NCBI GenBank assembly: GCA_047495785.1
Contig: JBLDXI010000048.1
Location: 930,001 to 994,000 of the forward strand
Direction: 5' to 3'
DNA from: Lepidodermella squamata
Lineage: Eukaryota; Animalia; Gastrotricha
Length of the DNA stretch: 64,000 nucleotides
Positions 33,223-51,806 of this stretch are shown here, piece after piece; positions within the stretch are counted from its first letter, which is position 1; every line of letters begins with the position of its first letter. The notes beneath the pieces were generated by a model that did no database searches, had not been told where the DNA came from, and worked only from the letters and a program-made list of their open reading frames with translations. Position numbers and translations under genes: made by a program.

Positions 33223-33726
33223 TTAACGTCCAGATGAACCGAATCCGTTATCGCCACGGGTCGAATTTGCTGCTAGAGCGTTTTTCAATGGCCCCGTTAC
33301 CGTTACTGCAGATTCTAAGCGACCATATTTTAAACACACCAACTGGGTAATACGGTCGCCTATTTTAATCTTGTAAGGTGTTTTGCTGTTGTTTGCAAGG
33401 CAGACTACGATTTTTCCGGTGTAGTCGGCGTCTTTAATTCATGAAAAATACAGATATTCATTAGTAATTTTCATTATTATTTGCTTCTTACCTATTACTC
33501 CAGCGACCGTATCGATTCCATGGTTGATGCTCATTCCTGATCGACTGAATAGTTGTCCATAATATCCTCGTGGTAAACAGATTTTAATATCAGTTTGAAT
33601 CAGTCCCCTGGTTCCAGGTTGCAGTGTCGTCTCTTCTGCTGAATAGATGTCCCAACCCACAGAGCCTTTAGTATGCTTTGTCGGTTCTTTAGCTTTGTTA
33701 CTTGTTAGCTCTACCTTCAGCTTCAT
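33223..33726 (-). CDS. dut: dUTPase (Maverick-encoded); intron 33432-33491
   Basis: Motifs 'GWDIYS', 'SRSG', spliced 'AGVIDADYTG', 'GDRITQL', 'RGDNGFGSSG'. Confidence 0.93.
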
Positions 33727-34160
33727 ATTTTATAATTTATATTGTTACTGAGGTTCGATTTTTATGTGAGCGGCTACCTCCTTTCAGGCATATTGTTTTT
33801 GTAATTCAATCTTCCTTAAAAATGCATTAGGGCCTTTAGCTCTGTTGACCCCTCAGTGCTGGCTTTAATGCTTTTCATCAAAGATTCTTGGTATTGTATA
33901 CATCCTCCTTAATTGCTGTCGGTAATTCAATAAGAAAACATCATGTCAATAAATCTTATACATCCTCCCTAATTAAACAATGCGATTTTTTACTTATCAA
34001 AATAAAAAGCAATTAGGATTTTTTACCCTTTACGGTGTAATTACCTTAAACAATTCAAACAAAACATCTCCCTGTTTTTTCCTTTTATGGAAATATCACT
34101 CAGACTATTTAAGAGAGATGCTTCAAGAATACACTTAGCATATTTCTTGAAGCAAGCTGG

Positions 34161-34925
34161 ATGCATCCTAAAGTCTACCATTTCGGCATAGTCGGCAACA
34201 TTGGGGCGTAAGTCTCATATACTCCACCGAATAGAATTCTATTTAAAGTCTCTTGTTTTAGCGGGAAATCAACCTTAATCGAGGGTCTCACTAATCTACC
34301 TTCACTCAACCGTAAACTTCAGGGATATACCGCGTGGCCAATTTGCGAGCCTGTTCATCGTTGGGAGTCCTTTACTGATGACGATAAAACTAACATTTTG
34401 AAAGATTACTATCAGATGAAAAATGCGTTCAACTTTCAAATTGTAGCCACGAGTGATATGTGCGGCCTTTATTCAGCCCCTAACCACAAACCTGAAATCT
34501 ACGGGGCGCATACTATCGTTCTGCATGATCGAACGCCCTTCTGTTCTAAAAACGTCTTTATCCCATGTGCGTATGCATCCAAGCGCATAAATTCTATCGA
34601 ATATCACGCTCTCATGAATTTGTATGATAATTTCGAGCCGAATTTTGTAAAAACTGAAGCTATTATTTACTTGCGCTCCTCTCCCCAAATAGCTTGTCAA
34701 AGAGCCGTAGCTAGAGCTCGGGGTTCTGAAATGCTATTATCACTGGATTATTTACGCCTCGTACATGAGTTTCATGAAAAAATGTGTACTGTTGAGACTA
34801 CAAACAAATCCCTACCATGTCCCGTGCTTGTTATCGACACTGATAATTTGAATGCCTCTGAGGTTCTAAAGCAAGCTTCTCAGTATGTTGCCTCTCTTAT
34901 CACGCCTGTAATCTCTCAGACTTGA
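34161..34925 (+). CDS. Deoxynucleoside kinase (dNK family); intron 34208-34261
   Basis: Spliced P-loop GNIGAGKST; 'EPVHRW'; 'HDRTP..VF'; 'IIYLRSSP..C..R...RARGSE...LDYL..VHEFH'. Confidence 0.9.
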
Positions 34926-34935
34926 ATCCTCATTG

Positions 34936-35298
34936 ATGGATCCAACAAGACTTGTGCTCTCGAACAGCCAGATTTTAGACGCTGAATCTTTGCAATGTCC
35001 AATTTGTTTATCTATCCTACTTAATCCTATTCAAACGCGCCCCTGTGGCCATTTATTTTGTACTAAATGTGTTCTCGCTATTTTTCAAAATTCAGCTCGA
35101 ACAGTATGTTGCTGTCCACTTTGCCGCGAATCATTAACAGGGAAAGATTTCGTTAAACCCCCTGTAATTTTATCGAACATTATCTCGAATTTGATTTACA
35201 AATGCCAATATTCTGATAAAGGCTGTCCCATTACTCTAACTTATGACCTCATTTTTGGGCATGAAAAGTTATGCCAATATAAAGAACCCATCCCTTAA
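34936..35298 (+). CDS. RING-HC finger protein with TRAF-type zinc finger (putative E3 ligase)
   Basis: 'CPIC...PCGHLFCTKC...CPLCR' followed by 'CQYSDKGC...HEKLC'. Confidence 0.85.
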   Translation: MDPTRLVLSNSQILDAESLQCPICLSILLNPIQTRPCGHLFCTKCVLAIFQNSARTVCCCPLCRESLTGKDFVKPPVILSNIISNLIYKCQYSDKGCPITLTYDLIFGHEKLCQYKEPIP

Positions 35299-35340
35299 AG
35301 TTTTACATTCTTATTTCATTAGATTTAATTTTCAATAATC

Positions 35341-48886: not shown

Positions 48887-49050
48887 AATAAATTACGAAG
48901 ACTTTAAAAACGGGGAAATTTACCGATAGCCATATTTTTATTTCTGCTGCGAATTTTGAAAATTGATAGATAATGATGAAAGTAGAAATAATGATTTTAG
49001 CTTAAAAAAAGACGGCACGCGATTAATCTTCCCTCATTCATTAAATCATT

Positions 49051-50162
49051 TTATTGTTGTTTGATATACAGAAAAAAAGGCGCCAATTTAACAAATGCTA
49101 TTTTTATAAGAGATAACGAAAAACAGCCGCTCATAATCATTTTTCCAGTGTGAAACAGTGTGGCAGATACATTTAACTTTGGTTCATTTTCATTAGTGCT
49201 GACTTTGGAGAAAACACGTATACGCAACCCAGGAAAAAATTCTGGTTGGTAAACGCATATTTTAGGAAATTGAAAAGCTAGCAGGCTAAGATTGACAGTT
49301 TTATGTAAATCGTAGAACAATACTATATTAGTAATTATTGGGTCACGGATTATCAACCGTCGATTAACAATTTTTCTGAGTGTAGCTTGAAGAACTCCAA
49401 AAGCAGTAACACAATTCGAGGCTGTTTTGGTACCACTACAAATTATAGCTCCGGATGAAAATAATAAAAACGTCGCGTTAAAAGCAGGTACTTTATAGAA
49501 CAAAGCACTCGACATTTTTTTTGGGTTATATTTTGCACAAGGTAAAATTAGGGCTAGACTATCTAAATTAAATAGAAAATTTGACCTTGATTTAGCCATA
49601 ATATTTGAAATAGAGTAATCAATATCATATTGTATATTATTTACTTCCATATTTAATGGTGGGGATTTCAATAGAAAAAAAGGTTCAGTGCTAGATTGTA
49701 GCTTTAAATCAACAGGATAGGATATAGTCAAATTTATGATCGTGGTCGACTGTGATGCGGCTGATTGAAGGCTTGTAACATACTTGATTTCAGCTGTTTC
49801 TGTTTGAACTTTGCGATAGGTTGAGGGCAAATCATGACCAAAAAAGAGGCGACAGAATCTTGCTTTCGTGACTCATGATTGGTAATTGGAACAGCTGGTT
49901 TATTTTTCGCCTTGCATGGCGTTTTCGCCGATTTAGCAACTGATTTCTTCTCAGTACCTATGACTTTTTTCTGAATTTTATGTTTAGCATTGCGTTTCGG
50001 TTGATTACGAACCGCAGTTTTTGCTAATCTAGAGGCTGATGTTTGTTCAACAGGTTCCTTGGTAAACGTACTCGTATTCGGTTCATTCAGGTTTATTGGT
50101 ACGAAATCATTGTTAGAAAAAAACAATGGAGAAGCCGGAGATGAATTGAAGAAAGCTTCCAT
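49051..50162 (-). CDS. TATA-box-binding protein (TBP)-like; core in ORF 49051-49830, probable N-terminal extension from ATG 50162 across a 1-nt frameshift near 49840
   Basis: Two TBP repeats: 'ISNIMA...NLDSLA..AKYNPKKM...FLLFSSGAIICSG' and 'ITNIV...NLSLLA...YQPEFFPGL...TLFHTGKMIMSG'. Confidence 0.88.
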
Positions 50163-50330
50163 AAATTCAGTAAGAAGAATAATATTCAAAGTTCTTGCGT
50201 TTGAAATGAAAAATGATCGAATGACGGAAGCCGGCCGCGGTGATTGGTTGGAGTTGCTGAGCCCCAGAACCTTCTGATTAGGAATGAATAAATAACAAAG
50301 GCATTATATAAATAAAATAAACTGACCAAA

Positions 50331-51137
50331 TTAGGTCGAAGAGCTGTTGTTGAAAGGTAAGACGGTAGCGACAGGTTGTAGTGCGATGGAGCGTTGCATG
50401 ATGCCCGGCCATTTACTATTCGCACCTTCCTGCTGACCATTAAGAACATCGATGACTGATGCCCATGGAATTTTCTGAGCGTGTTGATAGGGTGGAGGTA
50501 CGACGTTCTGCATTTCTACTGAGACCCTACGACCTGCCCGAAGTAAAAGGTAGAATATGTGCCGCAGGTTTACGCTGACACCATTAAAGTTTTTTAACAA
50601 ATCGTAAAATAAATGTTGGATGTAGATATATCGGCCTTCGGTGTAGGTAGGGTGTGCCGTTAGGCCATACCAGAAACTTTCTTCCAGGCCAGACACAATA
50701 ATAGGGTTAGGGCTATCGTCGAGGCAATCATCCAAAAGGTAATCACTTTCAGTAAAAATAATTGAGTGACAAATGGACGACCATAAATCATCCTGGCGAA
50801 CAAGGAGCGTGGTAGTATCATTTAGGATGCTCTTCCATAAATCATGCCCAACGATGGAAGCACAGGTAGCTAAATTATATTCGGCAAAATGTTGAAAATT
50901 CGTGCCATCGTGGGTTGATGGGAAGAGACGAGCAACGGCTCTTTTGTAGCCGAGATAAACATGATCGATAGTAATATGTTGGCCTTTCGAGTTGGCAATC
51001 AAATCGAATATGGCGACTTCAGCGAATGTAATGCGTCCAGAGAGGGTATTTAGTGATATATTTAATGATTTCGGAGGAAAAAGTAAATCTTCTCGGTAGA
51101 AAATCGCTTCATAAGATTCATCATAGCCAATAATCAT
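50331..51137 (-). CDS. Hypothetical Maverick protein (268 aa), no family recognised
   Basis: Long ATG ORF co-oriented with the cassette; globular composition. Confidence 0.6.
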   Translation of the reverse strand: MIIGYDESYEAIFYREDLLFPPKSLNISLNTLSGRITFAEVAIFDLIANSKGQHITIDHVYLGYKRAVARLFPSTHDGTNFQHFAEYNLATCASIVGHDLWKSILNDTTTLLVRQDDLWSSICHSIIFTESDYLLDDCLDDSPNPIIVSGLEESFWYGLTAHPTYTEGRYIYIQHLFYDLLKNFNGVSVNLRHIFYLLLRAGRRVSVEMQNVVPPPYQHAQKIPWASVIDVLNGQQEGANSKWPGIMQRSIALQPVATVLPFNNSSST

Positions 51138-51530
51138 AGCAACTTATTTGACCTTGCTATCCCTACCTTAATCTTTGCTTTTATTCGATTTTCCTTGAGT
51201 AAAAAAATGTTTCTTATATTTTTTAGATTACAGTTAAGTTGGATTGATAGGAGAAAGTAAAGTTTATTTACAAAACAAGTTAATGGACATATCAGGAAAG
51301 AAAGGAGTATTTATAAATGCTAATGGCCAAAGTAAAAAATATTTATTATATTTTAGATTAAAGTTAAGGGGGATTGATAGGAGAAAGTAATGTTTATTTA
51401 CAAAAAAGGTTAATGGAAAGTAAGGTGTATTTATATAAGCTAATGGACAAAGCAGGAAAAAAGATGAGCTAGCTTGAGTTCTTAGATTACTGTATCTAAT
51501 CAAGTATCTTTTTGGAAACTAAGAAAATTG

Positions 51531-51806
51531 ATGGAAGCAGAAGACATGTAAGTTTGGTTCTTTTTTAAAAAATCTTGAATAAATTCTGTTATGTTTAGTC
51601 GTGAACGCTTATATCAAGCACTGCTAAGCATTGACCATCTGCAACGAGCAATGACAGCAGCTATAAACGAAATGTTGAACACACAATTGGAGGTTGAACA
51701 ATTGATCAATGATGCATCACGATTTATGATAGCAACTCGAGCAAGAGATCAGGCATGCAGCCTAGATTGTGGTGATTGGAATTGTAATTACTGTTACAAA
51801 GATTGA
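51531..51806 (+). CDS. Small coiled-coil protein with Cys-rich tail; intron 51548-51598
   Basis: ATG GAA GCA GAA GAC AT|gtaagt...tttag|T CGT joins ORF 51591; ends CSLDCGDWNCNYC. Confidence 0.5.

Follow-up and report, generated by a model that had tools for sequence, protein, structure and literature searches.

Spliced introns in the core genes of a full-length Maverick/Polinton element on a gastrotrich genome contig

A 64,000-nucleotide stretch of the genome of the gastrotrich Lepidodermella squamata (assembly GCA_047495785.1, contig JBLDXI010000048.1, positions 930,001 to 994,000; hereafter the window) contains a full-length Maverick/Polinton element of 19,403 bp (32770-52172) in which all core frames are open and whose genes hold 20 short introns. 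Fourteen of these introns lie in the genes for the DNA polymerase B of protein-primed type (pPolB), the packaging ATPase, and the major capsid protein (MCP), and the element is thus a member of the family with a gene layout that published accounts say the family lacks. That the introns are real and are spliced we regard as close to certain. We hold it probable, with less assurance, that this transcribed element gained its introns gradually in the course of a long residence in an animal lineage and has kept them through DNA-to-DNA copying.

The coordinates of 18 introns were set by hand from the DNA and the reading frames before any run contigs were compared, and all 18 were found to be present with GT..AG ends and lengths of 51–62 nt, as an earlier reading of the letters alone (the sequence-only reading) had claimed. 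The longest gene, pPolB (35980..40835, plus strand; ~1424 codons in 11 exons, with PF03175 matched in four pieces), has the most introns of any gene (ten of 52–62 nt, ~2.3 per kb), with introns 1–5 at 37139-37195, 37274-37325, 37520-37578, 38013-38072, and 38145-38202 and introns 6–10 at 38997-39057, 39366-39427, 39662-39718, 40242-40301, and 40481-40535. On the minus strand, the gene for the A32/FtsK-type ATPase (42463..43306; ~244 aa) is split by intron 1 in its Walker A motif (43167-43223, 57 nt) and by intron 2 (42715-42766, 52 nt), and the MCP gene (43884..45374; ~459 aa, 29–36% identical to six homologues) by intron 1 (44417-44474, 58 nt) and intron 2 (43920-43972, 53 nt). Single introns interrupt the genes for dUTPase (33223..33726, minus strand, 147 aa, PF00692 matched in both exons at profile positions 2-70 and 69-129; intron 33432-33491, 60 nt, phase 1), deoxynucleoside kinase (dNK; 34161..34925, plus strand, 236 aa, PF01712 at E 1e-21; intron 34208-34261, 54 nt, phase 2, within the P-loop), and a PC4-like protein (35341..35862, plus strand, 155 aa, a weak label with PF02229 at E 0.33 on exon 2; intron 35699-35752, 54 nt, phase 1), as well as the 74-aa terminal gene (51531..51806, plus strand; intron 51548-51598, 51 nt, phase 2). 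The count of 18 had to be raised to 20, all of them GT-AG, as two more introns were found as joints in the run contigs: one of 53 nt in phase 1 (48871-48923, minus strand) in the gene for an 87-aa protein with a hydrophobic stretch (48617..48933, minus strand), and one of 53 nt (50274-50326, minus strand) located 4 nt behind the stop of a 268-aa open reading frame (ORF; 50331..51137, minus strand, a single frame covered by contigs of two runs, X2 and X3). The latter may lie in a 3' untranslated region or be coding in another frame. Near it, a poly-T end at 50077 is preceded by a poly(A) signal, and an overlapping frame at 50186-50515 could cross the intron. The 19 coding introns are spread over the three phases as 7, 7, and 5, and the G+C content of the introns is 17–42%, compared with 40% for the whole element.

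Since the element holds 1398 GT..AG pairs spaced 51–62 nt apart, such ends alone prove nothing, and the proof is carried by RNA joints, frames, and homology. When the introns are removed, every gene is open to a plausible stop, at the lengths given above for pPolB, MCP, and the ATPase, and the earlier claim that their removal restores the reading frames is thereby upheld. If retained, 18 of the 19 coding introns would shift the frame or hold an in-frame stop; only pPolB intron 1 does neither. All ten pPolB junctions are contiguous within ~3 columns on a profile built from 38 long homologues (columns 45-1252), and the same is true of both MCP junctions on a profile of six homologues.

Contigs from four sequencing runs (X1–X4), of which X2 and X3 belong to separate studies, were compared with the window. 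X2 and X3 were treated as RNA because of their joints, at which a contig skips exactly the bases of an intron, and their poly-T ends. X2 has poly-T loose ends at 32958, 42051, and 50077, as expected of a cDNA library, and an adaptor-like end in its contigs is one that we take to be a cDNA adaptor. Among the joints listed (15 of 37 in one comparison and 15 of 20 in the other), contigs of X2 and X3 have joints at the predicted coordinates for at least 15 of the 18 predicted introns and, with the two additional introns, for at least 17 of 20 (seven in X2 and X3, nine in X2 alone, and one in X3 alone). In the first comparison, 14 of the listed joints are GT-AG skips, at 12 of the 18 predicted introns and at both additional ones; the second contributes ATPase intron 2, MCP intron 2, and the terminal-gene intron. 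Joints for dNK, the PC4-like gene, and both additional introns were found in X2 and X3, and joints for dUTPase, ATPase intron 2, and MCP intron 2 in X2. Nine pPolB introns have listed joints. The tenth, intron 7, is taken to be spliced because an X2 contig of 4731 nt spans 36079-41390 (5312 nt) and the ten pPolB introns add up to exactly the 581 nt by which the contig falls short. In X1, a DNA-type run, the depth is 0 at every listed joint. With GT-AG ends, exact removal in transcript contigs, and joints absent from the DNA-type run, the introns conform to the U2 spliceosomal type. Self-splicing introns of groups I and II, with their conserved structured cores, run to hundreds of nt and are far larger than the A+T-rich, GT-AG introns of 51–62 nt described here (cf. 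309–376 bp in Polinton-like viruses (PLVs), PMC12220804). We disregarded ten X2 joints marked "opposite strand", which probably arose from fold-back in the library. X4 contributes four partial pieces of the element only. X2 and X3 have no cover over 47294-48295 in the integrase gene and little over the gene for a putative minor capsid protein (mCP), an observation that carries no weight on expression. Both RNA-type runs have a T at position 41071, where the window and X1 have a C, which is likely a strain difference.

Some points weigh against splicing throughout the element. The runs were compared as contigs and not as raw reads, X2 was called RNA by guess, the kind of X1 and X3 is not on record, and X1 may be the source of the window itself. 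Many joints carry the flag "between: not known", the joint of the terminal-gene intron occurs in X3 only, with other contigs running through it unspliced, and for ATPase 43167-43223 and MCP 44417-44474 there is no joint among those listed. Of these two, the ATPase intron would introduce an in-frame stop if kept and ranks 2 of 2089 on the host-trained score described below, and the MCP intron is supported by homology continuity. The guessed or unrecorded kinds of the runs and the use of contigs also leave some room for an artefact, in which the gaps would be due to insertions into a dead element, or the contigs with joints would derive from DNA copies that lack introns. This explanation is largely refuted and in our judgement scarcely credible, as the core frames are open, the ends and the target duplication are intact, and the joints fall on pre-set coordinates in two studies and never in X1.

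The copy state of the family was examined in X1, in which the depth is 1533–2998 on the element and 76–162 on its flanks, a ratio that should not be read as a copy number. At both termini, loose ends lead into other flanks, and across 41950-51950 a one-base gap, present at ~1% of the depth, is the sole difference that reaches 1%. The pattern would suit a large number of near-identical, intron-bearing copies, or free DNA that likewise carries the introns. Numerous, near-identical, intron-bearing copies argue against decay; the element that carries the introns is likely a working one. The intron-rich form would then have multiplied recently.

A host set of 17 candidate introns was picked by eye within the window and was not checked against RNA. 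Element introns have a median length of 57 nt (51–62) and host candidates of 54 nt (48–141; p = 0.58), with similar G+C content, and the intron of the host P450 gene measures 54 nt (13867-13920); the host-like size asserted in the sequence-only reading is therefore borne out. Under a score trained on the 17 host candidates, eight of the nine best-ranked among 2089 element candidates are viral introns, and none of the 20 ranks below 167. The sequence-only reading had also raised an introner-like origin, to be checked by mutual similarity. None was detected among the 20 introns beyond that of shuffled sequences (the best pair score is equalled or exceeded in 13 of 100 shuffles, and the mean in 7 of 100), and a search of the same introns for introner marks returned no terminal inverted ends, junction repeats of 0–3 nt, and no match longer than 14 nt elsewhere in the window. 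A recent introner burst is not supported. An old burst, whose introns have since diverged beyond recognition, is a proposal about their source that is compatible with gradual accumulation, and we consider it quite unlikely. It would agree with the narrow size range, with upstream exons ending in AG at 8 of 20 element introns, the outcome to be expected if an AG target were duplicated, and with the presence of introners in ~25% of dinoflagellate viral elements, Maverick-like ones included (PMC11957031). Apart from the lack of residual marks, it is countered by host introns of the same size range, 4 of 17 of which also follow AG. The long adaptation to the host that had been proposed earlier is something we infer from this lack of similarity among the introns.

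The sequence-only reading spoke of intron gain in viral genes, and this is sustained for the 14 introns of pPolB, ATPase, and MCP. They would be gains on the element, because these three genes have no cellular counterparts and their long relatives lack these introns. Named pPolB relatives come from a nemertean, a nematode, and a fish. Among 150 pPolB matches, 94 are truncated before the C-terminus, to which the other 56 extend. Of the 89 relatives that stop at column 780 or beyond, 7 end within three columns at motif B (p = 0.006 against a jitter null), four end exactly at the motif B tryptophan, and other relatives run from motif C (three) or motif A (one) into a donor-like tail or stop near pPolB intron 7 (two). 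One case was checked in DNA. Of 14 loci, 13 match weakly and without MCP matches, and only one, a distant Maverick pPolB, was used. It has 1227 uninterrupted codons across the positions of pPolB introns 1–8, followed in motif B by a donor-like GT and A+T-rich sequence 37 nt before the contig end (4266-4303), such that the 3' splice site would lie beyond the contig. Several database proteins end at the same residue as this relative. Motif B of the element's own pPolB has no intron where this relative shows the donor-like site. To judge from these sequences, independent intron gains may have occurred in relatives, in the same motifs at other positions. No DNA of relatives was found in viral contigs, or in metagenome contigs by a search with an exon of this element's pPolB.

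Within the element, the segments that hold the pPolB introns are more conserved than those at randomly chosen positions (p = 0.001–0.004 over the entire protein, 0.013–0.028 inside the intron span, and 0.010–0.038 when matched for phase and flanking bases), in a test that is modest at n = 10. In the gradual account, a conserved motif would tolerate only exact intron loss, and this ratchet would produce both the lean toward motifs and parallel gains in relatives. The same lean, which survives the matching of flanking bases, and the clustering of relatives' stops at motif B, with others at motifs A and C that read through donor-like sites, could instead reflect shielding, in which nucleases of rival elements cut conserved motifs and a spliceable insertion breaks the recognition site, leaves the protein unharmed, and piles up in parallel; Polinton polymerases can bear HNH or Vsr nuclease domains (PMC10748475). 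We rate shielding as very unlikely: the exact-loss ratchet predicts the same pattern, no candidate nuclease target has been identified, the MCP introns and pPolB introns 3, 5, and 8 (three of ten) do not fall in notably conserved columns, and the truncations of relatives can be contig ends.

Not all genes of the element are interrupted. Those for the integrase, the candidate protease, and the mCP-like and PZ-like proteins are single open frames, in agreement with the sequence-only reading, and a search of these genes for hidden in-frame introns gave best candidates of rank 26 (PZ-like), 41 (mCP-like), 94, and 235 of 2089, none with a listed joint. This distribution bears on adaptive host mimicry, in which introns would have been selected for escape from silencing of long intronless foreign DNA, a possibility raised in the sequence-only reading, or for better export or expression. 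Introns have been found in human cells to offset the repression that HUSH imposes on long transgenes lacking them (PMC8770142), and pPolB, the longest gene, has the most introns and is fully spliced in X2. However, no introns occur in codons 1–386 of pPolB or in the genes for the integrase and the mCP-like protein, each of 1.2 kb, host genes that are both long and intronless are present in the window (a SET/TPR frame of 546 aa and a receptor frame of 777 aa), and mimicry leaves the lean toward conserved motifs unexplained. We regard it as unlikely.

The explanation we favour is gradual gain on a resident, working element. Host RNA polymerase II would transcribe the element's genes and the host U2 spliceosome would splice them. 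Replication by pPolB and integrase would involve no RNA step, so that nothing would strip the introns, unlike reverse transcription in retroelements, and the copies would inherit them. The introns would need no function of their own and would tie the element to hosts that splice introns of 50–60 nt. This explanation has evidence to contend with as well. A G at donor position +3 occurs in 0 of 20 viral introns and in 6 of 17 of the host candidates (p = 0.005), and the two MCP introns show no lean to conserved columns (p = 0.54–0.74). The best full-length pPolB relatives are 26–30% identical and no close relative was found, which bears on the order and age of the gains. In addition, 45% of the coding length lies in genes without introns, a split chosen after the fact, and so uneven a spread is not predicted by a purely neutral model; the naive p of 1.3e-05 for this spread is likewise after the fact and is not relied on. 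A broader proposal, that intron-rich active Mavericks form a class of animal DNA viruses that is widespread but hidden, being discarded by ORF-based surveys, with repeated gains in the same pPolB motifs under selection (by nuclease shielding or silencing escape), is tentative, and we consider it doubtful. If true, such a class would offer a compact, replicated natural experiment on intron origin, and intron size would set host range.

Assignment to the Maverick/Polinton family is based on structure and gene content. Published ranges are 13–25 kb in length, 100–1500 bp for terminal inverted repeats, and 5–8 bp for target-site duplications (PMC10748475). The element (32770..52172) measures 19,403 bp, has terminal inverted repeats of ~216 bp with 63-bp subrepeats (left 32770..32985; partner ~51957-52172) and ends built of repeated triplets, and is flanked by a 6-bp target-site duplication (left copy 32764..32769, right copy 52173-52178). 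Its pPolB matches PF03175 and has 1995 relatives at E ≤ 0.001. The retroviral-type integrase with chromodomain (47402..48613, minus strand, 403 aa) matches PF00665 at E 1.7e-05, below the curated cut-off, and PF00385 at E 6.4e-07, and the packaging ATPase matches PF04665 at E 3e-07, above the cut-off. A double jelly-roll MCP is indicated by its sequence relatives and by a model of exon 1 (pLDDT 57.9) that matches capsid proteins of PBCV-1 and iridoviruses at E 6e-05 and TM 0.37. A layout in which the core genes are all single ORFs, a trait described for the family but not part of its definition, is not that of this element, which has 14 introns in pPolB, ATPase, and MCP. An animal host follows from the flanks, which hold astacin, kringle, Cys-loop receptor, P450, and receptor genes. 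A search with the host SET/TPR protein returned no named close relative. The insertion interrupts the frame of a host class C receptor (PF01094), both halves of which are nearly stop-free and in one frame. The halves lie at 31590-32769 and 52173-52456 (minus strand), and paralogues at 56869-59199 and 15950-17080 are 74–86% alike. One X1 contig joins 32763 directly to 52173 across the entire element, with nine differences in the 130 bases left of the site; the join marks an allele or close paralogue in which the site is empty.

Described animal Mavericks, including adintoviruses (PMC8097293; PMC10748475; 10.1101/2022.07.12.499685; PMC8502044), share with the element its size, inverted repeats, 6-bp duplication, pPolB, chromodomain integrase, ATPase, and major capsid gene, to which a candidate protease and a putative mCP may be added; it differs from them in the 14 introns of pPolB, ATPase, and MCP and in a gene resembling that of TATA-binding protein (TBP). 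In these reports, intact vertebrate Mavericks have no introns (PMC8097293), and nematode Mavericks have intronless core genes and cargo genes with introns (10.1101/2022.07.12.499685). PLVs are described with group I introns only, of 309–376 bp (PMC12220804). Dinoflagellate Maverick-like elements likewise have intron-type insertions within full-length elements (PMC11957031 / PMC12166617), but those introners are recognisable repeated transposons, mostly inserted post-integration, in elements whose intactness is called unclear and for which we came across no splicing data, whereas the introns described here are mutually unrelated, common to near-identical copies, and removed in animal transcripts. 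Punuivirus, a latent giant virus of Chlamydomonas, is likewise a DNA virus that is integrated and working, and 61 of its 506 genes have spliceosomal introns of host-like form (10.64898/2026.10.09.758095). It is a 617-kb nucleocytovirus in which introns distinguish the latency genes from the virion module; in this 19-kb element, introns occur in 9 of 17 transcription units, capsid and packaging genes among them. In the literature consulted, which did not extend to supplements, Repbase, or most subscription papers, no account was found of spliced core-gene introns in an intact animal Maverick (10.1101/809541 and 10.64898/2026.10.13.758929 contain nothing relevant to the point), and the strength of the present case lies in an intact, full-length, apparently multiplying element together with transcript joints from two studies.

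The assumption that such viruses are free of introns is built into surveys. One used a prokaryotic gene finder since endogenous viruses "do not contain introns" (PMC10120064), and another requires a pPolB ORF of 900 aa (PMC10748475). The longest stop-free pPolB stretch in this element is 453 aa, so the warning in the sequence-only reading that ORF-based mining would miss such an element was justified. This complete, transcribed, and apparently recently multiplied element shows that the assumption fails, so that the diversity and host range of Mavericks are likely undercounted. The 14 gained introns also provide a small system for studying the origin of introns and their preference for conserved motifs, and they bear on whether such viruses jump between hosts that differ in intron size.

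Besides the TBP-like gene, the element has further genes that are single frames. On the plus strand, a RING-finger protein (34936..35298; PF00097 at E 4.3e-07) lies between dNK and the PC4-like gene. On the minus strand, a low-complexity ORF of 383 aa without a Pfam match (40843..41994) and an open frame for a basic protein of 137 aa (41998..42411) precede the ATPase. They are followed by an adenain-like cysteine protease (43310..43873, 187 aa), a candidate whose position fits, whose Pfam match is weak (PF02902, E 0.034), and whose located His/Asp/Cys motifs we presume to be those of such a protease. The PZ-like protein (45408..45950, 180 aa, no Pfam match) bears a label that we assume, and the putative mCP (45989..47209, 406 aa) is presumed to be one from its position and motifs; it has no Pfam match and an uninformative single-sequence fold (pLDDT 30.6). 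A divergent TBP-like gene (49051..49650, minus strand, 199 aa from the first ATG) matches PF00352 at E 3.4e-24, and its product matched 35 TBP sequences in the PDB (best E 1.8e-19), the top ones being archaeal TBPs. As far as such matches go, the TBP-like and PC4-like genes suggest a promoter-recognition kit of the element's own. A literature search on TBP in Polintons listed five papers, which by their titles concern other viruses. In the gap that separates the terminal gene from the 268-aa ORF, which are divergently oriented, lie two direct repeats of 84 nt (85% alike; 51204-51417), possibly promoter or replication signals.

Several further features lie in the window outside the Maverick. 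A second element at 22869-28264 has 689-nt inverted repeats (99% alike), perfect palindromes at 26978-27287, more inverted arms at 26328-28703, and no long ORF annotated inside. A reverse-transcriptase fragment is located at 22218-22970 (minus strand), and pieces of a Mutator-type transposase (FAR1, MULE, ZSWIM-like) at 19677-21824 (plus strand). This animal contig also encodes a single-frame SAM-dependent carboxyl methyltransferase at 7011-8141 (minus strand; PF03492, E 6.6e-33), of a family mostly known from plants. Tandem Cys-loop receptor genes at 59634-62910 (minus strand) comprise a duplicated 3' part (96%) and a third fragment, and the window ends in what appears by eye to be the end of a long terminal repeat (LTR) retrotransposon-like sequence (62990-64000).

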